Under the pieces are notes generated by a model. It searched no databases. It saw nothing but the letters and a program-made list of their open reading frames with translations, and had not been told where the DNA came from. Shown here piece after piece: positions 804 through 54,715 of a stretch of 64,000 bases of DNA. This DNA is from Candidatus Dadabacteria bacterium (GTDB taxonomy: Bacteria > Desulfobacterota_D > UBA1144 > Nemesobacterales > Nemesobacteraceae): NCBI GenBank assembly GCA_026706695.1, contig JAPOYE010000016.1, forward strand, positions 6,191 through 70,190, in the 5' to 3' direction. Within the stretch, counting starts at the first letter, position 1; each line of letters opens with the position of its first letter. The translations under genes and the position numbers were made by a program.

Positions 804-1895
804 TTATCTTTCTCTCCAAGACGCCACGGTCGGATACGAATTTTTCTTTTTCAGGTCTTTACGGATAACGGCCTGAACCTGCCTTGTAACGGGAATTTGC
901 TCTCCCACTATACCCGTGGAAACAGCGGTGTAGACATCACTTTTCCCGCCCTTAAGAACCACTCCCGAAATGCCGGAGCTTATCTTTAGACTGGAATCCA
1001 CTCCCTTTAAGATTTTCGTGGTCTCGCTGGCAGATATGACTCTCTTGATGCTCCTGCGAAGGATTATCTCGTCGGCCATCCTCCCGACTACGCTGTCTTT
1101 TATCTCCCGGGGATCGTTCTGCCTCTCGTTGACCGAGACCCCCGCAGCCTTAATGGTAGCCATTATCACCGTTTTTGAAGCGGTGCTGAAATTCACCTTC
1201 TTGTCTTTAGGATATACGGTGAGATAGTCTTTGACCTGGAAAAAGAAATCCTTATCCATCCCCTCAATCATCCTAATTTCCTCAACGCTGTCAAGCAGTC
1301 CGTCCTTGATATAATAAGGATTATCAAGTTTTGCGTAATAGTTCCCACCGGCTCCATCGGGATCCTGATCGTTTCCGCTACCCGGCGCCGCCCCGTCAAG
1401 CCAGTTCACCAGACTTGCCACGAAGAGATCGGCCTTGTCCGTCTCCACCCCGAGAAAGCGGAAAAGTTCATTTAGCTGCGTTCGGACCTGAAAATCCACC
1501 CGGCCCGATCTCTGATCCACAAGAGCATTGAGATTGACCTTCGATCTCTCGTCTACAACTTGAAGAGATATGTTTCCTTCTCCGATGGGAAAAGAGATAA
1601 TGGAAAGCTTCCAGCCGTCGGAACCGTTTTCTGAGCTTATTGCCTGCCCAAGGATTCCCTGCAACAAGGGCAGGTCCTCCGGCGTTTTCTTCCTCAGCAC
1701 CCCCCGCACAACTCTCACCCCTGATTTCGCAATATGTCTTGCCTGGACATCGCTTGAGCTGTTCGCGGAAATTTCGTAACTCACGCGGGTCGAGTATATG
1801 AAATCAATCACGATTGTGGAAAGTATTGCAATCGTTATGACAACGATAACAAGTACTATTCCTTTTTGCGCTGTTTTCGGATCTGCTCTGCGCAT
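804..1895 (-). CDS. gspK: Type II secretion minor pseudopilin GspK
   Basis: ~360 aa with an N-terminal hydrophobic prepilin-like segment. It is the last gene of a G-H-I-J-K pseudopilin series, and this size and position are diagnostic of GspK. Confidence 0.7.
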   Translation of the reverse strand: MRRADPKTAQKGIVLVIVVITIAILSTIVIDFIYSTRVSYEISANSSSDVQARHIAKSGVRVVRGVLRKKTPEDLPLLQGILGQAISSENGSDGWKLSIISFPIGEGNISLQVVDERSKVNLNALVDQRSGRVDFQVRTQLNELFRFLGVETDKADLFVASLVNWLDGAAPGSGNDQDPDGAGGNYYAKLDNPYYIKDGLLDSVEEIRMIEGMDKDFFFQVKDYLTVYPKDKKVNFSTASKTVIMATIKAAGVSVNERQNDPREIKDSVVGRMADEIILRRSIKRVISASETTKILKGVDSSLKISSGISGVVLKGGKSDVYTAVSTGIVGEQIPVTRQVQAVIRKDLKKKNSYPTVASWRER

Positions 1896-2570
1896 TCAGT
1901 CAGCCACCGGTATAGCAACAATCATGGAATAAGCCTCCTCCTGATCTCCTGCTCCCAAAAGAATGATCTGGACTTGAACCGCCTTTGGAAATCCTCGCAT
2001 TTCTGACGAATTCCAATCCCACACCTCTTGCTCGTTAGCAGATGCCGGGGATCGTCCGGAAAGGAAATTCACCCTGAAACTCAGCACCCTTTCCGAAATT
2101 GGATATGCGGCTCCAGCCTCATCGTTTCCGATCCAGTAATTATCCTTCCTCATAAGGGCAAACATATCTTCGCGCTCGCCGCGGAGCGGAACCAGATAGT
2201 AGGAGATCTCGCTCTGGCCGGATTGGGTGGAATAATGGGTGGGGTCCTTCGCAAAAGAGGTGAATACTATTCTGCTGTTATCCCCTTCGAGCCTCCCGGT
2301 AAAGTAGCTATACGCGGAAGGAGAAGAAACCTCGGAATTGATGCTCCCTCTGGGAAAAGCGTTCACCAAGTCATGGCGCATCTTAAGCAGGATGGTATTC
2401 GCTTCCTGGATCAGTTCGTTTTCCGCCTCAACCCTGCGTTTGACTGTTATAAGCTGGGAAAAGGAACTGTAGAGCATCGTGAGCACGATGACCGTTATGG
2501 CGACGACGATAAGAATCTCTATAAGGGTGAAACCGCTTTTATCATCCCGAATCGACGAAGCTGATTTCAT
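1896..2570 (-). CDS. gspJ: Type II secretion minor pseudopilin GspJ
   Basis: Prepilin-type N-terminus GFTLIEILIVVAI, 224 aa, positioned between gspI and gspK. Confidence 0.7.
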   Translation of the reverse strand: MKSASSIRDDKSGFTLIEILIVVAITVIVLTMLYSSFSQLITVKRRVEAENELIQEANTILLKMRHDLVNAFPRGSINSEVSSPSAYSYFTGRLEGDNSRIVFTSFAKDPTHYSTQSGQSEISYYLVPLRGEREDMFALMRKDNYWIGNDEAGAAYPISERVLSFRVNFLSGRSPASANEQEVWDWNSSEMRGFPKAVQVQIILLGAGDQEEAYSMIVAIPVAD

Positions 2571-2916
2571 AGCTTTCCTCCCCGTCGTCCCAGGTTATAA
2601 GAACACTGATAATGGTCATTTTCGCTTCGAATTGGGTTAAGTTGTAAGGGGAGACTGTGAGATGCCACTCAAAGCCGGGATAATTTTCAAATTTCCCGCT
2701 CCTCTTCGAGTCCGCCGTGAGCCCCTCAGCGTCGATCCGTGAAGCTATGTCGTCGGCCAGACTTGTGGCTATCAGGTAGTTGGTAGACCTTGTGGCAAGA
2801 TTCACATTGTGACCTACAATGCCGAGGATTGAAACCATCGCGAAGGCAAGCAATCCCACGGCAACCATGACTTCGAGCAATGTAAATCCGCAAACGCTGT
2901 TTTTCGAGGCCTTCAT
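2542..2916 (-). CDS. gspI: Type II secretion minor pseudopilin GspI
   Basis: Prepilin N-terminus GFTLLEVMVAVGLL, 124 aa. Confidence 0.7.
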   Translation of the reverse strand: MKASKNSVCGFTLLEVMVAVGLLAFAMVSILGIVGHNVNLATRSTNYLIATSLADDIASRIDAEGLTADSKRSGKFENYPGFEWHLTVSPYNLTQFEAKMTIISVLITWDDGEESYEISFVDSG

Positions 2917-2928
2917 ACAGTCCTCTCC

Positions 2929-3462
2929 CTACCGTTCCGCCAGGTTCTGAAACCGGCTGTTAAATTCGACGTACTCGTCAAAAATCTTAGTGGCCCCGGT
3001 GTAGGGGTTTGTGGAGAGCGTGAAAAAATTGTCCTCGCCAGTTCGCAGGTGAATAACCGCCGAGTCAACAATCCCCGTCGGCAGAAAAAGTATGAATGCG
3101 TCTCTTCCGGAACCAATCTTTCCCTGGGTTCTCTCCGTCTGTATATCGCTGAAAAAAACCCCGCTGGGAAGCTTTCTGAATCCAGATGCGGAATCCTCCT
3201 CCAGGCGGAACTGGTTTTCCTCAAGAAATTCTGCCCAGTATTCTCCGGTATCGATATCGAAAGAAAGTTTGTATATCCGTTTTTCAAAAATGGCTTTGCT
3301 GTAAATATGCCTTATCGTAGTGACAAGCCCTCTTGAAGCACTGCGAAGGCTCATGTCACCCGTTTTGAGAACTCTGGGCATGGCCACGGAGAAAAAAGCT
3401 CCGAGCAGAAAAACGACCACAATGAGTTCAATTAAGGTGAAGCCGGCGGATTTATTTCTCAT
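2929..3462 (-). CDS. gspH: Type II secretion minor pseudopilin GspH
   Basis: Prepilin N-terminus GFTLIELIVVV, 177 aa. Confidence 0.7.
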   Translation of the reverse strand: MRNKSAGFTLIELIVVVFLLGAFFSVAMPRVLKTGDMSLRSASRGLVTTIRHIYSKAIFEKRIYKLSFDIDTGEYWAEFLEENQFRLEEDSASGFRKLPSGVFFSDIQTERTQGKIGSGRDAFILFLPTGIVDSAVIHLRTGEDNFFTLSTNPYTGATKIFDEYVEFNSRFQNLAER

Positions 3463-3878
3463 CTGTCTCTGCTGGACAGATCATCGTCTGAATTCCCTAT
3501 CCCATCCGGACCGTTAGACCTTATATAGTACAATCCGTCCTCGGTCTGGTCGGTCCCGAAATACACAAACTCGTTCCCCCAAGGATCAAGCGGAACGCTC
3601 GCGGATTCAAGATAACGTCTCCACCTCTTGGCCTCCCTGCCCACCGTTACCGGTTCGACCAGAACGCGTAGCCCCTGCTGGGTTTCAGGATAAAAACCGT
3701 TATCAAACTTAAACAGCTGGAGCGCCTGCTCAAACTGCTTGATCTGAATCATGGCCTGTTTTTCCTTTGCCCTCTCCCCCTGACCTATCACGTTCGTTCC
3801 CACTATGTAGGCAAGCCCCGCTATGATAAGCACGACCACCATAATTTCAATCAGAGTAAACCCCATCTGGGATCTCAT
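3459..3878 (-). CDS. gspG: Type II secretion major pseudopilin GspG
   Basis: GFTLIEIMVVVLIIAGLA N-terminus and the conserved C-terminal DPWGNEFVY...GPDG motif, 139 aa. Confidence 0.9.
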   Translation of the reverse strand: MRSQMGFTLIEIMVVVLIIAGLAYIVGTNVIGQGERAKEKQAMIQIKQFEQALQLFKFDNGFYPETQQGLRVLVEPVTVGREAKRWRRYLESASVPLDPWGNEFVYFGTDQTEDGLYYIRSNGPDGIGNSDDDLSSRDR

Positions 3879-3896
3879 TTTTCTCTACCTCCCTGT

Positions 3897-5105
3897 TCAG
3901 CTTATTACAGAAGTTAGATTCAACACAGGTAAAAGTATAGCAAAGACTATAAAACCCATCACGACGCCCATAATCAGTATCATTACCGGCTCAAGAAGGG
4001 AAGTCAGCGTGGCAAGCATGCCGTCGACCTCGGTATCATACATATCGGCCACTTTCGACAGCATGACTTCCATTTTACCCGCCTCCTCGCCCACAGACAC
4101 CATTCTCACCATCAGGGGAGGGAAAATCCCGGTCTGCCCAAGGCAACCTCCGAACGCCGCTCCCTCCGCAACCTTGACCCGAACATCCCTTATATTGTCA
4201 ACATAAAGACTGTTTCCCATAACCGATTCGCTCACCCTGATGGATTCAAGAAGAGGAATGCCGCTTGAAAGTAGCGTGGCAAGCGTTCTTGTGAAACGGG
4301 AAATCATCACTTTTGAAGACATTTTCCCGAACACTGGAATTCTCAGGGAAAACCTGTCGTAGACCTTCCTTCCGGAAGGAGTTTTTACGTACCTCTGTCC
4401 AAAAAACAATACGACGGCCAAGAAAATCAGCAGAAGGACAAAATTCTCCCTGAGAAAATCACTTGCACCTATAAGCATTACGGTAACAAACGGCAAAGCC
4501 TTGTTACTGGCCTCGAATATGTCGGCGACTTTGGGAATTACGAAAGTCATCATGAAAACCAGTACCCCGAGTCCGACGACAAACATTATCGCCGGATATA
4601 TCATGGCCCCCCTGATCTTCGAAGTCAGTTCGAGCTGCTTTTCAAGGAAATCCGCAAGACGGTCGAGCACGACATCAAGAGTGCCGCTAGCCTCGCCGGC
4701 ACGAACCATGCTCACGTAAAGATCAGAGAAAGCTCCTTTGTGCTCCTCAAGTGCGGCGTGAAGAGAACTGCCTTCACTCACCCGGCTTCGCACCTGAGAG
4801 AGAATTTCCTTGAGCTTCTGGTCATCAGTCTGCTCGTAGAGGGCCACAAGTGAGGTCTCAAGAGGAAGGCCTGATGAAATCAGGGTTGAGAACTGTCTTG
4901 TCATAACGGCAAGTTCCGAGATGCTCACCCTGTTCCACGGAAGGCTCACCGACGAGCGGCGAGATCCGCTCGCCTCCTTTATAGAGGAAAGATAGATGCC
5001 GCCTTTTCTGAGCCTGTCGCTTGCGATCTTGACCGATTCCGCGCTGATAACTCCCTTTACCGATTCGCCCTTGTCGTTGATGGCTTTATAGTTATAAACA
5101 GGCAT
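3897..5105 (-). CDS. gspF: Type II secretion inner-membrane platform protein GspF
   Basis: Polytopic membrane protein with the duplicated GspF/PilC architecture. The start is taken at MPVYNYKAINDKGE, which avoids overlap with gspE. Confidence 0.85.
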   Translation of the reverse strand: MPVYNYKAINDKGESVKGVISAESVKIASDRLRKGGIYLSSIKEASGSRRSSVSLPWNRVSISELAVMTRQFSTLISSGLPLETSLVALYEQTDDQKLKEILSQVRSRVSEGSSLHAALEEHKGAFSDLYVSMVRAGEASGTLDVVLDRLADFLEKQLELTSKIRGAMIYPAIMFVVGLGVLVFMMTFVIPKVADIFEASNKALPFVTVMLIGASDFLRENFVLLLIFLAVVLFFGQRYVKTPSGRKVYDRFSLRIPVFGKMSSKVMISRFTRTLATLLSSGIPLLESIRVSESVMGNSLYVDNIRDVRVKVAEGAAFGGCLGQTGIFPPLMVRMVSVGEEAGKMEVMLSKVADMYDTEVDGMLATLTSLLEPVMILIMGVVMGFIVFAILLPVLNLTSVIS

Positions 5106-5136
5106 TTGAAATACCGATGTTAAAGACAGCCGCGGT

Positions 5137-6819
5137 CTAGCTCTCCGCCAGATCCTCTTCCGTAACCCTGAGCACTTCGTCAATTGACGTTATGCCTTTT
5201 GCGACTTTGTCGGCACCGTCCATTCTAAGGGTAATGAGTCCGTTTCTCAGGGCTTTTTCCTTAAGCGTTGAAGAATCCGGGTGTGTAAGAACAGTGTTTT
5301 TGAGTTCATCATCGATAAGCAGTATCTCAAAAATCGCTATTCTTCCCGAAAATCCCGTCTCCATGCACTCTTGGCATCCCTTGGCTCTGTATATCTTTCC
5401 TTCCGGACAGGCCTCGCGAGCAAGTCCTATACGACCGAGCTCCTCATCAATCGGCACGTACAGCTCTCTGCACCGCGTGCAAAGAATCCTGACAAGCCTC
5501 TGAGCTATGACCGCCGAGAGGGTAGAAGCTATAAGAAAGGACTCCACTCCCATATCGGCAAGCCTAGTCACGGCGCTTACCGAGTCATTGGTATGCAGCG
5601 TGGAAAACACGAGATGCCCAGTGAGTGAAGCGTTCATGGAAATATCGGCAGTTTCCCTGTCCCTTATTTCCCCGACTAGTATAACGTCGGGGTCCTGCCT
5701 GAGTATTGAGCGAAGTCCGTTTGCGAACGTAAGATCGACCTTGGTGTTGACTTGGATCTGGTTAATTCCCTGTATCTGGTATTCAACCGGGTCTTCTATA
5801 GTGATTATTTTCTTGTCAGGGAGATTGATTCTCTGCAGGGCAGCATAGAGGCTTGTTGTCTTTCCGCTTCCCGTGGGTCCCGTAACGAGAATGATCCCGT
5901 GAGGACGTTTGATAAGGGATTCCACCGTCTCGAGCTTTTTTCCTTCAAGACCCAGCTGCTCGAAGCTCATCAGCACCGAAGACCTGTAAAGCAGCCTCAT
6001 TACCACGCTCTCTCCCCATGAGGTGGGAACTGTCGAAACCCTTACGTCGATATCCCTTCCTCCGATCTTGAGCCTTATGCTTCCGTCCTGAGGCTTTCTT
6101 CTCTCGGCTATATCAAGTTCAGACATGATCTTCACACGCGAGATCACCGAAGACTGAACCGTCTTCGGAACTTTCGTCACGTCGTGCAGAATGCCGTCCT
6201 TTCTGAACCGTACCAGCACTTCTTTTTCGAAACACTCTATGTGAATATCGCTTGCGTGCTCCCTTACCGCCTGAAAAAGAAGCGTGTTTATGAATTTTAT
6301 GATCGGAGCTTCATCTTCGGCCTCAATCAGATCCTGGGGCTCGGTAAACTCCATGTCGGAGAGTCCCGAACCTTCGTTTATATCCTCTGACACAACGTCT
6401 TTGCCCTGCTCGTAGACCCTGTTAATGCTGTCGGTCAGCACGCGCTCAAGGGTAATGTAAGTTTCAAGCGAGCAGTTAAAGCGGGAGCGGACCTCGTCAA
6501 GGGCATAGAGCTCCTGAGGCGGTGCGAATACGACTTTGAGCGTTCCGTTGTCTTTGCTTATAGGGAGTATTCTGAATCTCTTCGCGAAGCTGATCGGAAA
6601 CTGTTTTATCAGTTCATAATCTATATCGTCTTCGGGAATCGATTCGACTTTTTCAACTCCGTAAAACTCGGAAAGAATATCTAGAGCCGGGGAGTCTTTG
6701 AGCAAGTCAGTTTTGAGCAGTATGTCTTCTGTGTTCCGACCGTTTTTCCCTTTAAGCTCTTCAATCCTCCCCATAACCTCGGGGTAACGCCTGCCTATTA
6801 TTTCGTCAAGGGCCTTCAT
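5137..6819 (-). CDS. gspE: Type II secretion ATPase GspE
   Basis: Walker [10 protein letters not shown], a tetracysteine motif (CTRC...CQEC) and a GspE N-terminal domain, 560 aa. Confidence 0.9.
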   Translation of the reverse strand: MKALDEIIGRRYPEVMGRIEELKGKNGRNTEDILLKTDLLKDSPALDILSEFYGVEKVESIPEDDIDYELIKQFPISFAKRFRILPISKDNGTLKVVFAPPQELYALDEVRSRFNCSLETYITLERVLTDSINRVYEQGKDVVSEDINEGSGLSDMEFTEPQDLIEAEDEAPIIKFINTLLFQAVREHASDIHIECFEKEVLVRFRKDGILHDVTKVPKTVQSSVISRVKIMSELDIAERRKPQDGSIRLKIGGRDIDVRVSTVPTSWGESVVMRLLYRSSVLMSFEQLGLEGKKLETVESLIKRPHGIILVTGPTGSGKTTSLYAALQRINLPDKKIITIEDPVEYQIQGINQIQVNTKVDLTFANGLRSILRQDPDVILVGEIRDRETADISMNASLTGHLVFSTLHTNDSVSAVTRLADMGVESFLIASTLSAVIAQRLVRILCTRCRELYVPIDEELGRIGLAREACPEGKIYRAKGCQECMETGFSGRIAIFEILLIDDELKNTVLTHPDSSTLKEKALRNGLITLRMDGADKVAKGITSIDEVLRVTEEDLAES

Positions 6820-6834
6820 TTTCTAAGAACTTCC

Positions 6835-9330
6835 CTACTCAAGCGTATTCAGATCCCTTCTATGAAGCAAGGTCTTTCTTCTCTGGTAATCCATAAGCAA
6901 CTGCTTCATATCACTTTCCGTTTCAACTATCCGTGGGGTAAGAAGTATCATCAGGTTAAGCTTCCTGTTCTGATTGCGCTTGAACCTGAACAGGTTTCCA
7001 ATCAGCGGAATATCTCCGAGCAGAGGTGTTTTGTTGTGAAGCACCTCTTCTCTGTCCTGAACCAGCCCACCTATAACGAGGGTCTGCCCATTTTTGACTA
7101 TAACCGACGAATCGGCACTTCTTGTTGTAGTCGCAATGCCGAACTGGGCGGTGTTAAGTCCCGCGGGCGCCTCTCGGGTAGAGGAAACCTCGGTCACTAT
7201 GTCAAGGTTAAGGTATTCTCCTTCGCTTATCTGAGGGGTGATGCTGAGCCTTATTCCCACCGGCAATCTCTCGATCGTCTGAACTGTAACGCCGCTTGTT
7301 CCAACAGTGCTACCCATCGGAAACGGTATTACGTCAGCCACCACTATCTCGGCCGGTTCGTTGTCGGTTGTAATAATACTCGGGGTTGAAAGAACATTGA
7401 CGTCGGTCACGGAACTCAGCGCCTGAAACACCGCGGAGAACGAAGGAAGAGACGGAAGCGGACCCGAACCGTCGGGGTCAACTTCCTCTCCCACCACTCC
7501 GAGAAAGAGCCCCGAGAGACTGCCTATGGAAGCAGTTGCAATTGTAGGATCAGCCGCAACCCCGAGAAGACTTGGGATGCCCGGCAGCTGCTGTCCGATA
7601 AAACCTAGGTTGTCGCCCTCGATTGTAACGCCGAGACCGAAATTGGTTCCCAGCGCATTAAGGTTATCAAGGCCCACCTCGAGTATGGCAGCTTCCACGA
7701 ACACCTGCCTTCTCCTTACGTCAAGCTTATCCACTATCTGCTTGACCATTCTGTACTGCGTGAGAGAACCGATCACTATGATGGAATTTGTCGCCGGGTC
7801 CGAAGTTATCTTAAGCCCATCGCCCGAAGACACTATGACTGAAGAACCGGTCTGCTCGCTCCCTCCCCTCTGGATGTTCCCGCCCTGGGAACCTAAACCA
7901 CCGACATTTCCGCTGCCGCCCACTTTCCCCTCTCCGAGACGACTTGAAGGCTGGCCGGTTCTGCCGGATTGCCGCGCCTGATCCCGGTAGGAAACTGAAG
8001 ACACTGCGCCTCCTTTCCCCTCCGCGAACAGATTTCCCAGAACTTCGATTATCTGCTCAGCGTCGGCGTTTTTAACCGGTATAACGTAGACGTCCTGTTC
8101 GGCGTGCTCGCTCTCGATGTCCAAAACGGCGATCGTCTCCTTTATCAGGGAAAGATCCCTCGGGTCGGCAATCACTATTATGGAATTTGTCCTCTCGTCG
8201 TTTATCACCTTGAACCCCAGGAGTTCGGATCTTCCGGATATGAAGCCGTCATTCTTGCCCTTTGACGGCTTGGCCTTGGCACTTTTAGGATTGAAGATCT
8301 CAAGCAGCTTAAAAATAACGTTGGCCGAGCTTGTGTTATGCACTTTGATGAACTCTATTTTCTTCTCGTAATCAATATTCGCAATCACTTCGGCTATCTT
8401 GTTCACGTTCTGTTCATTATCAACCACCACTAGGGTATTTGACGGTTCGTGAGCCTTCATAAAACCATCCTTGCTAACCAGGGCCCGAAGGACGTTGGAA
8501 ATTCCTTTGGCTTTTACGCTCTTAAGCTTTATCAGCTTCATCACGTATTTCTGGGAAGACTCCGCAGGGTCGAAATCCAGTATTAACGGTATGCTCTCTG
8601 ACTTTATCCCCTTTTTGGGGACGACCTTGTTAACTCCCTCCGCGCTTATGACCGAATAGCCGTTCATATCAAGCAGTATCTCAAAAATTCTAAACGCATT
8701 CTCCCTCTCGAAACCGCCCTCGGGAGTTATGATCGTTATATTCTTGTCCCTGATTTTGTCACTTAAGAGATAGACCTCGGAGGTGATCTCGCTTATGGTC
8801 TTTACCATCTCATTAAGCGTCATGTTGGAGCGAAGGTTGACCATCCCCCCGTCCTCGGGAATTTCCTCACCCTCTTCACCGAGAGTCCCATCGCCCGAGA
8901 CCGCAACTGTTTCCTCAGGCTTCTTCGTCTCCGGCTCGGGAGACCTCTCAACTTCGACTGCAATTTCTTCCTCCGCTAAATCGAGCGGCAGACCGGGGTC
9001 CTCGACCAGGCCTTCAAGAGTCTCGTTGCCAGAAACTTTCACCGCATCTTTTCCAAGGGGCCTCAAGTCTTGCTTGCCCGGGTCCTTCGCGGCCTCCTCG
9101 GCCAGCAACTCCGTGGCTTCCACGGCAATATCAGCGGGTTCCGCGGGTGAGCCCTCCCCGTTCGCTTTTTCAAGCCTTGTGCCCGGGGCGACAACAACCC
9201 TGGCCCTCGTGAGATCCGGAAGCGGCTCGGACTTCTCCGCGGGAGCCAGATGGGGACAGAGAACGGAAGCGGAAAAAACGAGAACCGCTGAGAGAAGCGG
9301 GAGAAAATTTTTATTCAGAAAGTATTTCAT
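6835..9330 (-). CDS. gspD: Type II secretion secretin GspD, with a long acidic low-complexity N-proximal insert
   Basis: C-terminal secretin signature LLGDIPLIGNLF plus N-domains. The signal peptide is MKYFLNKNFLPLLSAVLVFSASVLC. An E/D/P-rich low-complexity stretch follows the signal peptide. Confidence 0.85.
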   Translation of the reverse strand: MKYFLNKNFLPLLSAVLVFSASVLCPHLAPAEKSEPLPDLTRARVVVAPGTRLEKANGEGSPAEPADIAVEATELLAEEAAKDPGKQDLRPLGKDAVKVSGNETLEGLVEDPGLPLDLAEEEIAVEVERSPEPETKKPEETVAVSGDGTLGEEGEEIPEDGGMVNLRSNMTLNEMVKTISEITSEVYLLSDKIRDKNITIITPEGGFERENAFRIFEILLDMNGYSVISAEGVNKVVPKKGIKSESIPLILDFDPAESSQKYVMKLIKLKSVKAKGISNVLRALVSKDGFMKAHEPSNTLVVVDNEQNVNKIAEVIANIDYEKKIEFIKVHNTSSANVIFKLLEIFNPKSAKAKPSKGKNDGFISGRSELLGFKVINDERTNSIIVIADPRDLSLIKETIAVLDIESEHAEQDVYVIPVKNADAEQIIEVLGNLFAEGKGGAVSSVSYRDQARQSGRTGQPSSRLGEGKVGGSGNVGGLGSQGGNIQRGGSEQTGSSVIVSSGDGLKITSDPATNSIIVIGSLTQYRMVKQIVDKLDVRRRQVFVEAAILEVGLDNLNALGTNFGLGVTIEGDNLGFIGQQLPGIPSLLGVAADPTIATASIGSLSGLFLGVVGEEVDPDGSGPLPSLPSFSAVFQALSSVTDVNVLSTPSIITTDNEPAEIVVADVIPFPMGSTVGTSGVTVQTIERLPVGIRLSITPQISEGEYLNLDIVTEVSSTREAPAGLNTAQFGIATTTRSADSSVIVKNGQTLVIGGLVQDREEVLHNKTPLLGDIPLIGNLFRFKRNQNRKLNLMILLTPRIVETESDMKQLLMDYQRRKTLLHRRDLNTLE

Positions 9331-9373
9331 AACCTGTTTAACCTTAAAGAAACTGAATTTTTTCGTATTGGGC

Positions 9374-10327
9374 CTAGTAAACCGTGTAGCGGTTGCTCTT
9401 TCTTTTACCCTGTCTCGTAAAATTAACGGTAAACTCACTCTGGCCCCTCAAGTCGGTAAAAAGCGAAAGAGCGCTCTGCACGTCGTTTAAAGCAACTTCA
9501 TTTATCTGGTGAACTATATCCCCGTTTCTAAGACCCATTTTATAAAACACGCTCCGGCTTTTCACTCCGAAGATCTTGATGCCGTCATCGCGCGGCACAA
9601 TCTTAGCCTCGGTTATTAAACTGCTGGGTTCAGCGAGCAGCTCTTCAAACATCACTCTCTCTATCTGGTACAAGCCCTCGCTGACCTTGCTGACCCCTGA
9701 AGCCGACGACTTTTTTGACCTAACAGACGGTCTGTTCCTTGCTTGAGAACTCGCGGGGCTTTTCGCGAAAACGGATTCAAGCTCGTTTCCGCAGGTAATC
9801 AATTCGGGACCTTCCGCTCTTCGTATAGTCACTTCGCAGTCGTCTATTTTCACTACCTCCACTTTTTCGGATGTCACAAGATCAACCAACTGCCCTTCAG
9901 AATAACCCTTTATTCCGCTATTTTCCATATTCTTTATCACGGCGATGCTCTTGTTGGCTGCAGAATCAGCGCGGCTTTTGAGTATGAAAGTTCCAAGAAG
10001 TTCAAGCTTGAGGGAAGTTTTCGGGGTAATTTCCCCCTCGAAAACTTCCGAGGAATTGCCCGTTCCCATCTGCCCGGCATACCCGCCCGTTCCGAACAGA
10101 TTTGTTCTCAGTATAGAGTCGTAGTGCTCCCTTGAACGATAGGGAATCTTAACCCGTCCGTACTTCTCCTTGTAGATGTGTTCTCCTGTCAGGCCTCCCT
10201 TGTCGGACTCTATCTTGTCGCGCAGGCCGTTGTTGATCGTGGCCGAAACCGAGTACGCAATGGCGACTATCAGCAAGACGTTTACGACCCAGACATACTT
10301 TCTCAAGACAAACAAAACCATAGTCAA
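9374..10327 (-). CDS. gspC: Type II secretion protein GspC-like (N-terminal TM anchor, C-terminal PDZ)
   Basis: N-terminal membrane anchor and a C-terminal PDZ-like segment (GLRNGDIVHQINEVALNDVQSAL). It is the first gene of the gsp operon. Confidence 0.6.
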   Translation of the reverse strand: MTMVLFVLRKYVWVVNVLLIVAIAYSVSATINNGLRDKIESDKGGLTGEHIYKEKYGRVKIPYRSREHYDSILRTNLFGTGGYAGQMGTGNSSEVFEGEITPKTSLKLELLGTFILKSRADSAANKSIAVIKNMENSGIKGYSEGQLVDLVTSEKVEVVKIDDCEVTIRRAEGPELITCGNELESVFAKSPASSQARNRPSVRSKKSSASGVSKVSEGLYQIERVMFEELLAEPSSLITEAKIVPRDDGIKIFGVKSRSVFYKMGLRNGDIVHQINEVALNDVQSALSLFTDLRGQSEFTVNFTRQGKRKSNRYTVY

Positions 10328-10467
10328 TTCCTTAAATTAATCCCATATAATTTAATAGGATGCCTTATTTTTTTCAACATTCCCATCGCCGCGGAGACAT
10401 AGCTCAAGAAAAGCCCGCAATTCTGAATCGATACCCCGCGGCGATTTTTTAAATATCCGTGCAATGT

Positions 10468-11511
10468 TCACTCGCTCCGTTCTGTTTCCCCCGCCGGAGC
10501 GACGACAGGGAAGTTTTCAAGCACGGAACAAAAATACCGCTTTTCAAGATCATATACGTCAAAAGCAAGTTCCGAGGCCCGCTCGAATCCCTCTCCGCAT
10601 GAAACGCTCTCGCTTATCTCCTTGAAAAGCATTCCCATGTCGTACCACTTCTGACCGATGCTGTTCATCTCGTCGGGAAGACCCGCCCCGTAAAAAGGGG
10701 AGAGCACCGGGGAGACCTCTTCCAGGAAATCCCTGTAAAACCACCTGAAAGCGGCGCCGCAGACCCCTCTTCTGCATATGACCTGGTAAGTAAACCTCGC
10801 GGTCCACTTCCAGTCGGCAAGGTCTCTCCAGCCGGGAAGATCCTCGGCCCACTTCCTTATAACCTCAACGCCTGAAGTTCCTCTCAGTGTGGTTCGGCCT
10901 TCAAGCATCATCTCGGCGTTTTTCCTTACGGCACCGAGAATCATCTCCTCAAGGTCGGCGCCACGTTCCATGGACTCCACTTCAACCCTGTTGTTTGAAA
11001 GAGGATACGGCCTGGCTTTTGAGCTTCTCGCTTTTGTCATATTCTCAAAAGAGACAGTCTGGAGCCCTTCAAACGAGTTGTCCGCTACGTAAAAGACGGA
11101 TTCGGAATCATCGTATCCGCATACCGCAATTACGTGTCCGGGGAAATGGGTCCTGGAGTCAAAATACTCAAGGTAGCGTATATCGGCCTGTATCAGTACC
11201 GGAATGTCTCTCTGAATAAATTCCTTGAGTTCAGCAGAGGCCCGTTCGTTGTCATCCTCATACTTCCAGTCGGCTATGTCAAGGCCGAAGTTCCTGAGGA
11301 AGTTAATCTCCATAAGAGGACCGCGAGGCTGTATAATCCTGCCCGGGTTCATCCCGTCCTCACAGGAGTAATAAAAACCGAGCCCCGCTCCAAGCCCGAA
11401 ACACATCTGCTCGGAAAAATCCTGTCCGTAGTAGATACAGATATCCCTGAGTGCCGCGGAACCGCAGTGCACTCCCTTTAAGTGTCTCCAGCCCTCTATT
11501 GTCTTTCTCAT
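10468..11511 (-). CDS. BtrH-N / C39-like papain-fold domain protein (DUF4872-type)
   Basis: N-terminal GVHCGSAALRD cysteine motif typical of the BtrH_N/peptidase C39-like fold, ~350 aa, no signal peptide. Confidence 0.45.
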   Translation of the reverse strand: MRKTIEGWRHLKGVHCGSAALRDICIYYGQDFSEQMCFGLGAGLGFYYSCEDGMNPGRIIQPRGPLMEINFLRNFGLDIADWKYEDDNERASAELKEFIQRDIPVLIQADIRYLEYFDSRTHFPGHVIAVCGYDDSESVFYVADNSFEGLQTVSFENMTKARSSKARPYPLSNNRVEVESMERGADLEEMILGAVRKNAEMMLEGRTTLRGTSGVEVIRKWAEDLPGWRDLADWKWTARFTYQVICRRGVCGAAFRWFYRDFLEEVSPVLSPFYGAGLPDEMNSIGQKWYDMGMLFKEISESVSCGEGFERASELAFDVYDLEKRYFCSVLENFPVVAPAGETERSE

Positions 11512-11644
11512 AAAATCGTAAGCGCAGGAAGTCTTATGCCTCTTTTACCAGCTACAGCATGTCCATCGGTAGCAGCAAAATGTGAAGACGGATATCGGCA
11601 ATGCTTACAATTTTAGCTGTTTCCGTTCCTTAACTGAAATTTTA

Positions 11645-11670
11645 TGTTCCATAAATGAAGTTATGGAACG
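11645..11670. repeat. Hairpin element, copy 1 (stem GTTCCATAA, loop ATGAAG)
   Basis: ATGTTCCATAAATGAAGTTATGGAAC is read directly from the sequence. Its reverse complement occurs at 13114-13143. Confidence 0.8.
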
Positions 11671-11883
11671 GAATCAAGAAAAGTTTTTCTGGCATATATG
11701 AGGGATTTTGAAAATCAGAAGTTAATCGAATTAAGGAGGGCGGTTCGATTCCAAATGTTTTCATTGGAGTAAGACTTAGCATCTTTGAGCAGGTTTCCGT
11801 ATCCCTCTTTAATTCATTAACGAAATTAGCGTGAAAGTGTTTTTAAGAGTTCAAAAGGAAATTTATTTAAGGAGGATTTACAC

Positions 11884-12876
11884 ATGAGATTACGTAATCT
11901 TTTTATGATTCTATTGTTATGCATGACAGTAGGAGTTTTTGGTGTGTCCTGCACCGGTGATGATGGAGCTCAGGGGCCACAGGGTGAGCAAGGGGAAAAG
12001 GGTGATCCCGGTGAAGTAACGGAAGGTGACCTACCGGAAGCGGTAGAAACCTATAGTTTTCTTGAAAGCTGGGGAGTTGCTGAGGGAGTTTCTTGCAGTA
12101 GCGATATACTGAGCACCGAAGCAGACCTCCCCGGACCTGATTTGGCAGATATTAGTGCTACCGGTCAGGGTAATCTTAGTAGGACCAATGACATAAATAA
12201 TGGTGTTAGTGCTACGTGTGCTGACAGTATTTTCGGCAATATTGTAGCTATGCAGAAAGGTGGAATCAACTTAGATGATCCTGCTCCAGCAGGTAATCAA
12301 ATTTATCTTTATAAAACCAGCCGGACAGAAAAATCTATAGTAGAGAAGGTGCCAACGGAGAAAACCGCTTTCTCTCTTGATATTCTAACCACCACCACAA
12401 AAGATATTGTCGGGGGTAAGGTTTATGCGAAGTTGGAAACTACTGGAGGGGATGAGGCCATTGAGCGTCAGCTTCTTCACTCCCAATGCACCAAAGGAAC
12501 GGATCCTCCGGATATTGTAGGAGATTTCCGGGCCGTCAAGATAGTAACGGCAGCACAAGAGTTTGTTAACAGTATGCCATGTACTGCCGGTACTAACTGT
12601 ACACCCGCGACAAAGACAACTACTAAATACAAGGTCTGTGTGAGGCTTGATGCTCATCCCGGTCAAGTTAAATGTCTTGTAGTGGATAAGGGTGTAACTC
12701 CTGATCCTACACCATCTGACGATAAAACCTTTATAGGTCTTTATGACGGTATGGATGTAAGTGATCAAGAAGTCGACATCACTGCCACTGTAAGTTCTGG
12801 TAATTTCTTTGGTGACACTGCTGCTGAAGTCGCAGGAGCCTATGCAGGTCTTTGTCATCTGTTCGGACTTGAATAA
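11884..12876 (+). CDS. Secreted or lipo-protein with a short collagen-like Gly-X-Y tract, Thr-rich
   Basis: Strong RBS AAGGAGGA 8 nt upstream. Signal peptide MRLRNLFMILLLCMTVGVFGVSC, followed by GDDGAQGPQGEQGEKGDPGEV (7 G-X-Y triplets). GC is lower than the flanking DNA. Confidence 0.7.
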   Translation: MRLRNLFMILLLCMTVGVFGVSCTGDDGAQGPQGEQGEKGDPGEVTEGDLPEAVETYSFLESWGVAEGVSCSSDILSTEADLPGPDLADISATGQGNLSRTNDINNGVSATCADSIFGNIVAMQKGGINLDDPAPAGNQIYLYKTSRTEKSIVEKVPTEKTAFSLDILTTTTKDIVGGKVYAKLETTGGDEAIERQLLHSQCTKGTDPPDIVGDFRAVKIVTAAQEFVNSMPCTAGTNCTPATKTTTKYKVCVRLDAHPGQVKCLVVDKGVTPDPTPSDDKTFIGLYDGMDVSDQEVDITATVSSGNFFGDTAAEVAGAYAGLCHLFGLE

Positions 12877-13113
12877 TCGACTAAATCCCATAAACGAAAA
12901 AGCTCCTAGTGGATTGTTTCCATAGAGACATCATCCATCATCGAACTAGCTGCTTTATCTTTGGGTAAAATCCCTCGGTAGGTTCTTCCGTAACTTCAGA
13001 CCTGCCGGGGGATTTTTTTATTTTGAAAACAAAATGTTTGGGAATAAACAGGATTGAGACCGTCTCTAAGGGGCAGTGAAATATCAAAAATCGAAAGACC
13101 AAAAAGCAGATTT

Positions 13114-13143
13114 AATGTTCCATAACTTCATTTATGGAACATT
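13114..13143. repeat. Hairpin element, copy 2 (inverted orientation of copy 1; 12-bp stem)
   Basis: AATGTTCCATAACTTCATTTATGGAACATT is the exact reverse complement of the core of copy 1. Confidence 0.8.
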
Positions 13144-13432
13144 AAACTCTTCCGCTCCAAAACCCTTCCTTATAAAACTACCACAAAAGACTTCAATATG
13201 TCAAGAACTTTAAAAAACCCTGTAGGAAGAATTGTATGAACATTCTACTTCTCAGAGCTATTGTAATCCGGCTTGCAGAAAAAGCAAGTTGTGTGAGAAG
13301 AAAATAGGAACAGGAATGACTGCAACAGAGACAAAACGGTTTCATGCTGGAAGCATATTCTGGTAACCTTTCTCAAGTGCTATAGTTGCTTTTTAGTCCA
13401 AGACGCCGTGTCGCCTGGATCAGCTGGTCACC

Positions 13433-14374
13433 ATGATTGAGAAAATCCTTAAAAATTCGAAAAAAGCTATTCTGCTCGGAATAGGAGGGGGAGGAGATAT
13501 AGTCGGAACCCTTCCGACGGCCAACCTGCTCGAGATAAACGGAACGCAATGCGTTCTGGGGGGACTCAGCTGGGAGCGTTTCACAATAGACCCCGATCCG
13601 GGGCCAAGAAAACTTGAAGAATCGCGCAACGTGCGCGAGATAAATGACGTGGTCTGGAAATGCAACAAAGATTCCACGACCCGAGGCGGAGCAAGGTTTG
13701 CCGAAGCAGGCATGGCCGAAGTTCTGGGAGAGGAAACTCTTCTTGTCGATATAAGTTACGGTCCGGAGAAGGTTTTTGAGGGAATAACGGACGCCGCCGA
13801 AAAACTCGGCGCGGATCTGGTGGTGGGAATAGACGTCGGCGGAGACGTGCTCGGGTTCGGAGACGAAAAGGGACTCATGAGTCCGCTTGCCGACGCCGTA
13901 ATGACCGCGGCGCTTTACAGACAGAGCTTCCGGATGCCCACCGTAATGGGAGTATTCGGCTTCGGAAGCGACGGAGAGCTCTCCAAGGAAGAGCTTGAGA
14001 GGTCATTCGGCATCATAGCGCGGAACAACGGAATTCTCGGCAGCTGGGGCATATCCGCAAACACACTGGAATTAATGGAAAAGGCGATAAGCGTAATACC
14101 CACCGAGGCGAGCAGAGGGCCAGTTGAATACGCAAGAGGAGCTTTCAGCCCCACTTCAATAAGAGGCGGCAGAAGAAAAGTCGAACTCGATATAAGTTCC
14201 ACAGTGACTTTCTACGTAGATCCCCGGGTGGTTTACGAAAAGGTTTCAGGACCCGCGCAAGCGGTCTGCGGATGCAGAACGATAGGGGAGGCAAACGCAA
14301 AACTTAACGAAGCGGGAATCAGAACGGAACTTGATATTGAGATGGAACTTTACGAAAATCCCGGGAAAAACTGA
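13433..14374 (+). CDS. Hypothetical protein with N-terminal GIGGGGD motif (possibly DUF1152-like)
   Basis: 313 aa, Gly-rich N-terminal motif LLGIGGGGDIVG, no TM or signal peptide. The family assignment is from memory only. Confidence 0.35.
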   Translation: MIEKILKNSKKAILLGIGGGGDIVGTLPTANLLEINGTQCVLGGLSWERFTIDPDPGPRKLEESRNVREINDVVWKCNKDSTTRGGARFAEAGMAEVLGEETLLVDISYGPEKVFEGITDAAEKLGADLVVGIDVGGDVLGFGDEKGLMSPLADAVMTAALYRQSFRMPTVMGVFGFGSDGELSKEELERSFGIIARNNGILGSWGISANTLELMEKAISVIPTEASRGPVEYARGAFSPTSIRGGRRKVELDISSTVTFYVDPRVVYEKVSGPAQAVCGCRTIGEANAKLNEAGIRTELDIEMELYENPGKN

Positions 14375-14447
14375 CGGCGCTTACGGCCAGCAGTTAAAAC
14401 TGTACCGCCGACCCGATGGCTGCATTTTCACGGGTCATCGGCGCTTC

Positions 14448-17887: not shown

Positions 17888-18931
17888 ATGAAAAGGCTCA
17901 AGAACCTGAGAGAAAAACCAAGGAGATTCTTTCTGAGTGCGGGAAAGTACGCCGGCTTCGGGGCCGTGCTGCTGCTGATCGCGTGGTTCCTGCCGCTTTC
18001 TCCATCCTCAGACCAGCAAGCTTCCCGGGATGACCCTGTCTGCGCCGACAACCGTGCGCCCAGACTATCAGGAGCTGGCGCGCTGGCCAAACGCCTTCGG
18101 AATACAAACCTTCTAAACGGTAACGAGATATACGACCGGCTAAGTCTCGAGAGCGGCGACACAGAAACCGGACAAGCCGATGCTTCACCCTCAAGAGGCG
18201 CTGGCGGCTTTGTGACGTCCAGTCCGTTCGATCCCCGGTACCGTGAATCCTACTCCGACATTGCGGAACTGCGCTACTCCCTGCCCGCAAACGCGAGGAG
18301 CTACGAGCTCGACGAGACCAAGGCGACGTTTCTGTTCTACGGTCAGGAGCCAGTGCTGCGGTGGCACTCGTCACTGGGCTCGAATACCGAGGTGTGTGCC
18401 GTCCGGTTCGTGGACACAGACCGCACAGACTACCGGCTGCGCACGTTTCCCGACCAGAAAAGCGCGCTTGCGGAAGGCCATGTCGTCACACACCGCTACC
18501 ACTGCGGAACATGCTCCTCCCTGCGGGATCTCGCGGTCTACCTGGCGAAACCGGATCTGACGAAACCGGCGAGAACATGCGGGAGGAAGCTTACGGCAGA
18601 CGGCATCAAGAAGTGTTTCATGGAAAAAGTCGGCTTTGCGGAAATGTGCGCAGAGACCTGGACATACAACGTACTGCACACCAAGCGCCGGTGCATGAAG
18701 ACCTGCGTTGAGCACTACGGGTTCTGGAACGTGCTGACAAACAAGATGAACGACGCGCATGCAGACGAGCGGGGGAACCTGAACCCGTGCCTGGCCTGTG
18801 ACGAGCACGCTTCCGGCCCGGGGTTCCAGTACGCAGCGGGACGAACGCGGAGAAATTCCGGCCTGGTGTCAGCTATCTGCCGGCAGGCAGGGGAAATCTA
18901 CCCGGTCGAGCATCGGCTTTACTTTGAGTAG
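17888..18931 (+). CDS. Hypothetical membrane-anchored Cys-rich protein (GC-rich gene)
   Basis: 347 aa ORF with one N-terminal TM segment and many Cys in the C-terminal half (HCGTCSS, CLACDEH). Many antisense ORFs overlap it because the local GC is high. Confidence 0.4.
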   Translation: MKRLKNLREKPRRFFLSAGKYAGFGAVLLLIAWFLPLSPSSDQQASRDDPVCADNRAPRLSGAGALAKRLRNTNLLNGNEIYDRLSLESGDTETGQADASPSRGAGGFVTSSPFDPRYRESYSDIAELRYSLPANARSYELDETKATFLFYGQEPVLRWHSSLGSNTEVCAVRFVDTDRTDYRLRTFPDQKSALAEGHVVTHRYHCGTCSSLRDLAVYLAKPDLTKPARTCGRKLTADGIKKCFMEKVGFAEMCAETWTYNVLHTKRRCMKTCVEHYGFWNVLTNKMNDAHADERGNLNPCLACDEHASGPGFQYAAGRTRRNSGLVSAICRQAGEIYPVEHRLYFE

Positions 18932-31861: not shown

Positions 31862-32413
31862 ATGAGTATGAGAATCCTTATCTTAATAACGCTTTTGTTT
31901 TTTCTGCATGGTGCCGGAGATGTCTCCGCCAAGGTCTTTCTTACCAAGGGCAAGGCGCTTGAGCTCCTTTTCCCTGAAGCAGAAGAAATAGAAAAAAGAC
32001 ACGTTTTTCTCACCAGACCCCAAGCCGAAAGCGTACGCGAAATGGCCAAGGCAGAGGTAGATTCAAGACTTTATACTTTCTACATAGCGAGATCCGGCGG
32101 AAAAGAGACTGGCTACGCCGTCATCGATACCCACACTCTTCGGACACTTACCGAAACCGTACTGTTCGTGATAAATCCCGATGGGACTCTTCGCCACGCC
32201 GAAACTCTCGCATTTTTCGAACCCACAGATTACATGCCGAGCGGAAAATGGATAAACTTGTTCCTAGAAAAAACCAAGATGGACAGAATGAAGGTAGGAA
32301 AGGGAGTTCCCAACATTACCGGAGCCACTATAAGTGCCGTATCTTTTTCGCAAGCCACGAGAAGGGTTCTCGCAGTCTACAGGGTTATGCTCGGCACCCC
32401 GGCTGATCAATAA
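31862..32413 (+). CDS. FMN-binding domain exported protein (flavinylation target)
   Basis: Signal peptide and a conserved FMN_bind threonine motif (TGATISA), 183 aa. Confidence 0.65.
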   Translation: MSMRILILITLLFFLHGAGDVSAKVFLTKGKALELLFPEAEEIEKRHVFLTRPQAESVREMAKAEVDSRLYTFYIARSGGKETGYAVIDTHTLRTLTETVLFVINPDGTLRHAETLAFFEPTDYMPSGKWINLFLEKTKMDRMKVGKGVPNITGATISAVSFSQATRRVLAVYRVMLGTPADQ

Positions 32414-32433: not shown

Positions 32434-32931
32434 ATGAAATTCTTCATTTCATCGGACATAAGAAAAAACGACCTGTTAAAACTTGTCGTTCTGCTTACGA
32501 CTATTTTCTTCCTCTTTCTGTGGTTAACCAACCTTCTGCTTTTCCTTAAGGTGGGGTTCAGTTACGGGAGCGTTGTTGAGTACTACAGGGGATCCGAGGA
32601 GAGTTTCAGGCCTCCGAGAAGCTACCTTGGACTGCTTGAAGAAGCCCATTTCCACTTTTTTTCAATGGCTGTTTTACTTGTAACACTCAATCATCTTTTT
32701 CTTTTCACTAACAGAAGCTCCGCCGAAAAGCTTCTCGTCATAATAGCATCTTACGGCTCGGCCTTCCTCGATATAGCCGGCGGCTGGCTGGTAAGGTACG
32801 TAAGCGCCGAGTTTGCCTATGTTAAAATCGGCTCTTTTGTCGTCCTTCAGATATCTCTTCTTTACCTGATCATTTTCGTAACGTTTTATCTTTACAGAAA
32901 AAAACCGGAGTATCCGAAGCCGAAGCAGTGA
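32434..32931 (+). CDS. Small integral membrane protein (4 predicted TM segments)
   Basis: 165 aa with four hydrophobic segments. Translationally coupled after the FMN-binding gene. Confidence 0.5.
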   Translation: MKFFISSDIRKNDLLKLVVLLTTIFFLFLWLTNLLLFLKVGFSYGSVVEYYRGSEESFRPPRSYLGLLEEAHFHFFSMAVLLVTLNHLFLFTNRSSAEKLLVIIASYGSAFLDIAGGWLVRYVSAEFAYVKIGSFVVLQISLLYLIIFVTFYLYRKKPEYPKPKQ

Positions 32932-54277: not shown

Positions 54278-54641
54278 CGAGTCGGCCGTGCGGTCGCCCG
54301 CGGCTTGTACGCGGGAGGAAAGTCCGAGCTTCACAGGGCAGGGCGCTGGTTAACGACCAGGTGTCGCGAGACAACGGAAAGTGCAGCAGAAAGTATACCG
54401 CCTGGGCGCCGCAGGCGTCCCGGTAAGGGTGAAAAGGTGGTGTAAGAGACCACCGCTCCGAAAGTGATGGAGGAGGCAAGGTAAACCCCGCCCGAAGAAA
54501 GACAAATAGGAAAACACCCGGACAACTGTCCGGTCAGGGCGGCCCGTCCTGGTTTTCGGGTAGTCGCTTAAGGTATTCTGGCAACAGGTATCTCAGATGG
54601 ATGACCGTACTTGACAGAACTCGGCTTACAGGCTGACTCGC
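54277..54641 (+). ncRNA. rnpB: RNase P RNA (bacterial type A)
   Basis: Conserved blocks GGAGGAAAGTCCGAGCTTCACAGGGCA, AGAAAGTATACCGCC, GGTGTAAGAGACCACC, GGTAAACCCCGCCCG, ACAGAACTCGGCTTACAG. The P1 helix pairs GCGAGTCGGCC with GGCTGACTCGC. Confidence 0.85.
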
Positions 54642-54715
54642 TTCCTTTCCCTGTTCTCGCGTAGACAGGTTCGATACGGGCAGAATCATCCGGAAAAAAG
54701 AAAAACCGGGCCTGA

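Follow-up and report, generated by a model that had tools for sequence, protein, structure and literature searches.

Classical invertons, among them fimS of Escherichia coli, hin of Salmonella, the capsule promoters of Bacteroides and cwpV of Clostridioides difficile, consist of short inverted repeats around an invertible segment that controls a surface structure, and an invertase gene beside the inverton is common without being universal. In the Mycoplasma systems vpma/Xer1, vsp/Mbr and vsa/HvsR, genes with a conserved 5' untranslated region (5'UTR) and signal peptide and divergent mature parts are placed behind a stationary promoter by tyrosine-recombinase inversions at short 5' sites (PMC2268961). 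The core of a tyrosine-recombinase/dif site is formed by two inverted repeats of ~11 bp around a central region of 6-8 bp (6 bp in dif), which is the site of strand exchange (PMC5357621; the same arm and central-region architecture is given in PMC6449649), and on the Rep_3 plasmids of Acinetobacter gene modules lie in varied contexts between inversely oriented XerC/XerD sites of ~28 bp, the pdif sites, at which a single spacer mismatch beside the XerC arm is tolerated (PMC13141974). Here, a chromosomal locus that shares features with each of these is described from a 64,000-nt stretch of a Candidatus Dadabacteria genome (assembly GCA_026706695.1, contig JAPOYE010000016.1, positions 6,191 to 70,190 of the forward strand; hereafter the window), in which two inverted copies of a short palindromic element, the upstream element E_up and the downstream element E_down, bracket a segment of ~1.45 kb carrying a surface lipoprotein gene. 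The pair had been picked out in an earlier note made from the letters of this DNA, and a literature search found no paper describing the system.

We put the probability at about one in two (0.5) that the locus is a whole-gene inversion switch, i.e. a phase-variation system, of the surface lipoprotein that is run by an unlinked tyrosine recombinase. The two elements would form a conserved, inward-facing pair of recombination sites, each with 9-bp arms (extendable to 11-15 bp) around an asymmetric spacer ATGAAN, and recombination between them would invert the ~1.45 kb segment relative to its flanks. In the orientation present in the window, an outside promoter-like sequence, P_R, would be capped by the E_down hairpin and a U-rich tract while facing the gene's 3' end; once the segment is inverted, transcription from P_R would pass through a hybrid site that lacks the U-tract and on into the leader and gene. 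The recombinase would be encoded elsewhere in the genome. We infer that recombination is site-specific and not RecA-dependent, with a tyrosine/Xer-like enzyme, that the window orientation is the low or off state and that flipping occurs within populations. Support for the switch comes from the conservation and orientation of the sites, the match between partner spacers, a locus that is flipped and has a hybrid junction, and from where P_R lies and how well it is conserved.

The core of E_up is GTTCCATAA-ATGAAG-TTATGGAAC at 11646-11669 and that of E_down is GTTCCATAA-CTTCAT-TTATGGAAC at 13117-13140. As the arms are palindromic, the orientation of each copy is set by the 6-bp spacer alone, and the two spacers (ATGAAG vs CTTCAT) are exact reverse complements; aligned as direct repeats, E_up and E_down are 84% identical. 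With 3 mismatches permitted, GTTCCATAA-N6-TTATGGAAC occurs as 2 copies in the 64 kb, against a chance expectation of 0.02. The earlier note had read the first copy correctly as ATGTTCCATAAATGAAGTTATGGAAC and placed it one base too far to the right, at 11645-11670 instead of 11644-11669; its second copy, AATGTTCCATAACTTCATTTATGGAACATT at 13114-13143, does contain the exact reverse complement of the first, and both copies are, as it proposed, hairpins with complementary 6-nt loops, the stem being 9-10 bp in E_up (predicted energy -10.6 kcal/mol, z -3.0) and 15 bp in E_down (-18.7 kcal/mol, z -7.1). It had further held that the copies are inverted like recombinase sites and not arranged as a tandem operator, and this fits well with the conservation of the inward pair around homologous genes and with a locus, L042, that is flipped at the elements. 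On the minus strand E_down gives an A+U-rich 16-bp stem, of which 3 pairs are GC, with CTGCTTTTTG after it, and in the window it was flagged as resembling a terminator. A T-rich tract follows E_down, on the strand read from P_R, in most loci; E_up is without a U-tract. An alternative pairing at the first copy, of TTCCGTTCC (11621-11629) with GGAACGGAA, exists as the note had claimed, with the second partner at 11665-11673, one base from where it had been put, and it is probably due to chance because, apart from the window, it occurs in L025 alone, 7 related loci being without it.

Contigs encoding homologues of the lipoprotein were fetched and scanned for the element, and loci of the close subfamily (given here by L numbers) were compared. 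An inward-facing pair is present in every locus for which both ends were retrieved (8/8: the window, L027, L028, L032, L033, L034, L035 and L043); L010 and L025 provide one end each. The upstream copy carries the spacer ATGAAN and lies ~215-240 nt before the ATG (9 loci), and the downstream copy carries the reverse-complement spacer and follows the stop codon at a distance of ~190-400 nt (window, ~240 nt). These loci occupy several chromosomal contexts, namely between the BtrH_N and DUF1152 genes (window, L033), in a tandem duplicate beside a glyoxalase gene with BtrH_N and DUF1152 fragments (L028, L032, L034, L043), at an independent site between RuvB and TolQ (L010, L027, L042) and in a BtrH_N-TolQ hybrid context (L035). 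Distant paralogues between LeuA and MutS (L029, L030, L031, L036 and a Ca-binding protein gene in L040) have no element. The BtrH_N and RuvB/TolQ sites are homologous for ~70 bp outside both elements, P_R included, and the elements are therefore internal to a common unit and do not form its ends.

All copies have a 9-6-9 layout, which extends to 11-6-11 in most of them and to 15-6-15 in the downstream ones, and 20 of the 24 core positions are invariant among 16 copies, including the inner CATAA/TTATG. Five of the spacer bases are conserved; the sixth varies (G, A or T) and is equal between partners in 7 of 8 loci (permutation p 0.012), as G/G in the window, L028, L032 and L034, A/A in L027 and L035, and T/T in L033. 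Mean pairwise identity over the eight loci is 0.82-0.99 in the leader and signal-peptide region, 0.22-0.68 in the body of the coding sequence, ~0.6 in the 3' untranslated region (3'UTR), which is near-identical within the window, L010, L027 and L028, and 0.82 in a 34-nt block past E_down, which on the minus strand holds P_R. A scan of 185,579 species-representative genomes gave 24 single core matches, 23 of which are chance-like palindromes and one a true relative, L010, a 2.0-Mb chromosome labelled Thermodesulfobacteriota with tttaatGTTCCATAA-ATGAAA-TTATGGAACattaaa 3' of a homologous lipoprotein gene. A scan of Joint Genome Institute (JGI) metagenomes for the element returned chance matches only, the match in L039 lying within a coding region, and a scan of a viral collection returned none.

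At the RNA level, no Rfam 15 family was found at the locus at gathering score, where there are far-sub-threshold hairpin matches only (E up to 1). Covariation in the stem over 16 copies was no better than in shuffles (183/500); the stem is 94% paired and an A:T pair is broken in 5 of the 16 copies. The idea of a stable RNA hairpin under selection was dropped on this account, and the lack of an RNA-structure signal is counted in favour of recombination sites. A reading of the palindrome as a sigma-54 promoter or enhancer-binding site was also dropped, the conserved GG-N10-GC being absent on inspection.

L042 and L027 derive from one sample, their flanks are 97.6-99.2% identical, and the bracketed segment of L042 is inverted relative to RuvB and TolQ. 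In the comparison of the two, left-flank homology stops at the last base of the L027 upstream element and right-flank homology begins inside the downstream element. The intact site of L042 combines the RuvB-side outer flank, otherwise found beside the upstream copy, with the ATTAA inner extension that is otherwise confined to downstream copies; judged by its sequence, it is the hybrid site predicted as the reciprocal product of an inversion. P_R in L042 points at the lipoprotein gene, ~105 nt from the ATG. At L042 4991-5025 the outer arm beside P_R is fused to the distal leader, and an ATG in the arm opens a 26-codon N-terminal extension of the protein P0018 (MFHKNEISAK...); such extensions could mark flipped and deleted loci in protein databases.

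P_R resembles a sigma-70-type promoter and is presumably active. Its -10 hexamer is TATTTT in 9 other loci, the sequence as a whole is kept in all 10 loci where it is visible, and it faces the 3' end of the gene in 9 of 9 unflipped loci retrieved and the ATG in L042. On the segment's opposite side a possible inward -10 hexamer, P_L, is found as TACAAT at the same position in 8 of 9 loci scanned, all of them with a BtrH_N-type left flank, and L027, in the RuvB context, has CACATT. A relic leader promoter homologous to P_R and a degenerate distal-leader half-site for the L042 deletion were considered, and the similarities are not significant, with p of 0.24 and 0.27 for the window and 0.012 for L027.

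A number of observations weigh against an inversion switch. Pfam scans found no recombinase or transposase inside the bracketed segment, as the earlier note had stated, nor among the 47 open reading frames (ORFs) scanned in the window, the Pfam listings of the related loci hold no tyrosine recombinase, and no invertase lies next to the element in the 64-kb window or in the flanks of related loci; the sole recombinase met in those flanks is a large serine recombinase in an unrelated island of L032. The arms are symmetric and without distinct XerC and XerD halves. The spacers of L043 are mismatched, T vs G, at the base adjoining the inner arm, and, as the loci are related, the spacer statistic rests on about two independent co-changes. 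Orientation relative to the flank can be read in 11 loci, of which 10 are alike and only L042 is flipped, so that flipping is not obviously frequent. At the P_R junction of L042 the outer arm alone is left, with the spacer, the inner arm and ~150 nt of leader missing, and the cargo gene differs from that of L027; L042 is therefore a locus that was flipped and then altered, and possibly locked, and no clean flip. P_L could drive the gene in its present orientation, in which case the switch would be a change of promoter and not on/off, and the promoter and terminator calls are consensus matches only. Finally, an inverted repeat of 30-36 bp could recombine via RecA at low frequency.

Of the other explanations, the main one is that the elements are static cis-regulatory palindromes, either operators of a dimeric regulator 23-28 nt past convergent P_L and P_R or a 5' hairpin together with an antisense terminator, with L042 representing a rare RecA accident between the 30-36 bp repeats. 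This is possible, if doubtful. In the window both elements lie 28 nt downstream of an inward-pointing -10-like hexamer, E_down with its T-rich tract is terminator-like on the minus strand, a single orientation is shared by 10 of the 11 orientable loci, there is no recombinase nearby and the modules plainly recombine homologously in their conserved flanks. Static palindromes would, however, leave unexplained both the conservation of five spacer positions with a matched sixth base and why a perfectly conserved consensus promoter is kept yet terminated ~60 nt on; nor is the left -10 kept in the RuvB context, nor is there RNA covariation, and the promoter-to-element sequences are unrelated, so the pair is no duplicated promoter-operator unit. 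It is improbable that the sites instead chiefly move or exchange the module between locations or strains via a Xer-type recombinase, in the manner of a dif-module-like mobile cassette, and do not switch expression. A bracketed module does exist at two independent chromosomal sites and in a hybrid context, in both orientations and with differing cargo alleles between the same flanks, and the site architecture and spacer rule are pdif-like, but the homology between independent sites extends ~70 bp past both elements and takes in P_R, which means that the elements are not the edges of the module, the allele replacement between the window and L025 went by homologous recombination and not by the sites, and the copy on the glyoxalase side stems from a segmental duplication that carried BtrH_N and DUF1152 fragments with it.

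It is very unlikely that the elements act as RNA kissing loops, in which base pairing between the loops AUGAAG and CUUCAU of the plus-strand transcript would link the 5' end of an mRNA to its 3' end. Complementarity between the loops is exact, and their variable base co-varies in 7 of 8 loci, yet a strong intrinsic terminator (-27.8 kcal/mol, U7) stands between the stop codon and E_down, the stems have no compensatory pattern and are often mismatched, and P_R and the flipped locus would be left unexplained. We give almost no credence to the elements being the terminal inverted repeats of a miniature inverted-repeat transposable element (MITE) or other non-autonomous transposon carrying the lipoprotein gene. 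The earlier note had offered a MITE-like mobilised cassette, and inverted repeats around a segment of somewhat lower GC with no transposase inside are what such an element would look like. Against it, conservation goes on past both elements, no target-site duplication is evident, and the element is not dispersed: the window has two copies, the species representatives show a single exact core match per genome (L010, the other 23 being chance-like), and neither the JGI metagenomes nor the viral collection gave a relevant match. A phase-variable surface-protein locus is the best supported of the three options in that note, the third of them being paired regulator sites, which are possible. The combination of an element confined to this locus, no variants and no compositional anomaly was looked for and is not what was found; the finding therefore stands.

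Table 1. Positions of the features described, in window coordinates unless a locus is named.
Feature	Position	Strand	Details
E_up (upstream element, copy 1)	11640..11669; core 11646-11669	+	outer arm TTTTATGTTCCATAA, spacer ATGAAG, inner arm TTATGGAAC
E_down (downstream element, copy 2)	13111..13146	-	perfect 15-6-15 palindrome; minus-strand spacer ATGAAG, as in E_up
P_L, possible inward -10 hexamer TACAAT	11606..11611	+	28 nt before the extended arm of E_up; weak -35; consensus match only
Conserved 5' leader, 215 nt	11670..11883	+	ribosome-binding site AAGGAGG; mean pairwise identity 0.82-0.94 across 8 loci
Surface lipoprotein gene, 330 aa	11884..12876	+	only gene inside the segment
Signal peptide and lipobox Cys23	11884-11952	+	
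Seven Gly-X-Y triplets, residues 25-45	11956-12018	+	
Conserved 3'UTR, 90 nt	12877..12966	+	motif ACATCATCCATCATCG at 12928-12943
Predicted intrinsic terminator of the lipoprotein gene	12967..13019	+	17-18 bp G+C-rich stem, then T7; -27.8 kcal/mol, z -4.7; kept in L010, L027, L028
Variable spacer, terminator to E_down	13020..13110	.	mean identity 0.13, large indels
P_R, inward-facing promoter-like sequence	13175..13204	-	-35 TTGACA (13204-13199), 18-nt spacer ending TGG, -10 TAGTTT (13180-13175)
Paralogue 5' regions matching the reverse-complemented 3'UTR	L029 4924-5003; L036 5924-6003; L031 374-453		

The bracketed segment (Table 1) consists of the leader, one gene, a 3'UTR with terminator and ~90 nt of spacer DNA, with a BtrH_N/DUF4872 gene on the minus strand to its left and a DUF1152 gene on the plus strand to its right (Pfam assignments). 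The final ~45 nt of the leader and the first 15 nt of the coding sequence are identical in seven other loci. The description in the earlier note of a lower-GC cassette between flanks of ~56% GC holds in part: the segment has a GC content of 42.6%, among the lowest 2.2% of 1447-bp windows, and the window mean is 51.1%. The dip is modest and owes much to ~930 nt of non-coding DNA at 36-39% GC in two long intergenic stretches, which is usual for intergenic DNA in the window; the coding sequence itself has 45.3% GC (z -1.5, the 4th lowest of 54). The only gene inside was rightly recognised as a lipoprotein with a signal peptide and a Gly-X-Y tract, and its body, which had been called Thr-rich, is mildly so at 10.3% Thr. 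The body is beta-rich and hypervariable (predicted AlphaFold structure with a confidence score, pLDDT, of 83), and the window lipoprotein has no Pfam family, no sequence match in the PDB and no fold match in the PDB.

Within the leader there is a short upstream ORF of five codons (11755-11772, plus strand, ATG TTT TCA TTG GAG TAA), whose ATG and TAA are kept in four aligned loci (window, L025, L027, L028) and whose peptide is not, and a second AAGGAGG occurs 14 nt 5' of it inside the direct repeat D2 (11715-11739 and 11851-11875). The motif GGTTCGATTCC in the leader had raised the idea of a tRNA fragment or att site; this was dropped, as the locus holds no tRNA and neither L027 nor L028 keeps the motif. 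An antisense ORF of 168 aa at 12385-12891 on the minus strand, with its start 9 nt past TAGGAG, is probably no gene because L027 lacks the ATG and L010 does not preserve the frame.

In a Candidatus Dadabacteria metagenome-assembled genome (MAG) a hypothetical protein has exactly the sequence of the window lipoprotein. Homologues of the window lipoprotein number ~60 at 32-62% identity, and those few with a source name are from Dadabacteria. They have in common the signal peptide, a CTGDDG motif and the Gly-X-Y stalk, with identical N-termini. A further 18 proteins of the haemolysin-type Ca-binding family (PF00353; P0062-P0079) share this N-terminus only, at 80-90% identity, and have unrelated heads (the window counterpart of the shared part is 11884-12018). 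The Ca-binding protein gene of L040 (5001-6302) fills the slot between LeuA and MutS where other strains have lipoprotein paralogues. It follows that the N-terminus is modular and that head domains can be swapped.

On its minus strand, the 3'UTR of the window gene (12877-12966) is similar to the start region of the element-less paralogues between LeuA and MutS, namely their 5'UTR, ribosome-binding site and ATG. The similarity has a Smith-Waterman score of 62, attained by 0 of 5000 shuffles, and includes an exact 16-mer, CGATGATGGATGATGT, and a 10-mer, TGGAAACAAT; the sense mRNA therefore holds ~40 nt antisense to the translation-initiation region of the paralogues. Going by this complementarity, expression of the module could be coupled to silencing of a default coat protein via trans-acting 3'UTR antisense, or the similarity could be the relic of an inverted 5' region. 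Putting the parts together, dif-like sites may have been adapted in Dadabacteria as dispersed whole-gene inversion switches that flip the lipoprotein onto a fixed outside promoter, with the 3'UTR antisense silencing the constitutive LeuA-MutS paralogue, so that the whole would amount to a coat-exchange system; this combined reading we regard as unlikely. Homology of P_R with the promoter of the L029-type paralogues was looked for and was not significant.

The modules also recombine by other routes. The window and L025 share the left flank, E_up, leader and signal peptide and begin to diverge inside the coding sequence, indicating that the allele was replaced via the conserved flanks, by homologous recombination, and not via the elements. 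P0005, the protein in L025, has 51% identity to that of the window and is listed under the same NCBI MAG; its gene lies behind a flank, E_up, leader and signal peptide virtually identical to window 11480-11960. The short contigs L025 and L026 end at the conserved 3'UTR. These observations suggest that strain variants were binned together and that the assembly fragments at the modules. L035 joins a window-type left flank to a right flank of RuvB/TolQ type across one module (compared with window 10468-14374 and with L027), so that larger chromosomal rearrangements have their breakpoints at the modules; those of L035 are mosaic, at 7296 vs L027 and 7177 vs L010, and similarly mosaic vs L033.

In the window 74 bp (14375-14447) separate the DUF1152 gene from the glyoxalase gene; at this place related strains (L033/L043, L032, L034, L028) hold an island with SocA_Panacea, ParA/CbiA, several DDE transposases, a large serine recombinase and an RVT_1 protein. 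The second lipoprotein module of the island, which comes with BtrH_N and DUF1152 fragments, indicates a tandem segmental duplication. In L032 an insertion sequence (IS) of ~1.4 kb at ~9490-10887, with an ISNCY-type transposase (NF033594, E 4e-106), is bounded by repeated CGGGTGGCTTACGAAT; it was considered as a dif-targeting IS and set aside as irrelevant, lying ~240 bp to the right of the downstream element. The other content of the window is housekeeping, including a type II secretion operon (804-10327), ClpXP and trigger factor, ilvC/ilvN, RNase P RNA (54278-54644) and four tRNAs, and five ORFs of the window have no Pfam family at the thresholds used (17888-18931, 31862-32413, 32434-32931 and 62214-62555 on the plus strand, and 2542-2916 on the minus strand).

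If the inversion switch is real, gene-module rearrangement of the Xer/dif-like kind, so far known mainly from Acinetobacter plasmids, would reach the chromosome of an uncultured phylum, and inversion-driven variation of surface lipoproteins, best known in Mycoplasma, would reach a phylum known from metagenomes only, some members of which are sponge-associated. The 24-36 bp site, the outside promoter and the hypervariable, collagen-stalked proteins, a family without a known fold, would together provide a handle on surface variation and would have a bearing on phage or host interactions. As markers of the breakpoints of larger rearrangements and of assembly fragmentation, the modules are also relevant to MAG reconstruction in this group.

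Compared with classical invertons, which flip a promoter or a short leader, a whole gene with its leader and terminator (~1.45 kb) would flip here and the promoter would stay outside. In C. difficile cwpV the OFF orientation makes a terminator in the leader, to which E_down with the U-tract after P_R may be likened. The Mycoplasma loci have the same conserved 5'UTR and signal peptide with a divergent body; those, however, are clusters of silent genes with one promoter and an adjacent recombinase gene, whereas the modules described here are dispersed single genes, each with its own site pair and its own P_R, and have no linked recombinase. With the Xer/dif core the elements share the layout of symmetric arms around an asymmetric 6-bp centre, and partner sites, which share the central region in Xer/dif systems, do so here in 7 of 8 loci with three spacer variants. 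Chromosomal dif is a single site per replicon that serves dimer resolution, in contrast to the inverted pairs around a gene seen here, and XerC/XerD half-sites are distinct, whereas the arms here are reverse complements, and in downstream copies the palindrome is perfect except for the spacer. More symmetric arms would fit a system with one recombinase, the kind represented by XerA, XerH and XerS (PMC5357621).

The likeness to pdif modules lies in inversely oriented arm/6-bp spacer/arm sites that bracket modules, and in modules of one kind that recur in various settings and orientations. At 14 of 22 positions the arms agree with Acinetobacter pdif (ATTTCGTATAA-N6-TTATGTTAATT), including the inner bases ATAA and TTATG, which is a resemblance only (PMC13141974). 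The pdif modules differ in being carried on Acinetobacter plasmids, as arrays of alternating C/D sites, whereas those described here are chromosomal, in Dadabacteria, and are isolated single genes. Here, moreover, the arms are near-perfectly symmetric, with orientation given by the spacer only, conserved sequence including a promoter-like element lies outside the sites, and a single lipoprotein family provides the cargo in every case. Both dif-module-like site pairs and variable lipoproteins under inversion control are known kinds of system, of which the locus would be a variant in an uncultured phylum.

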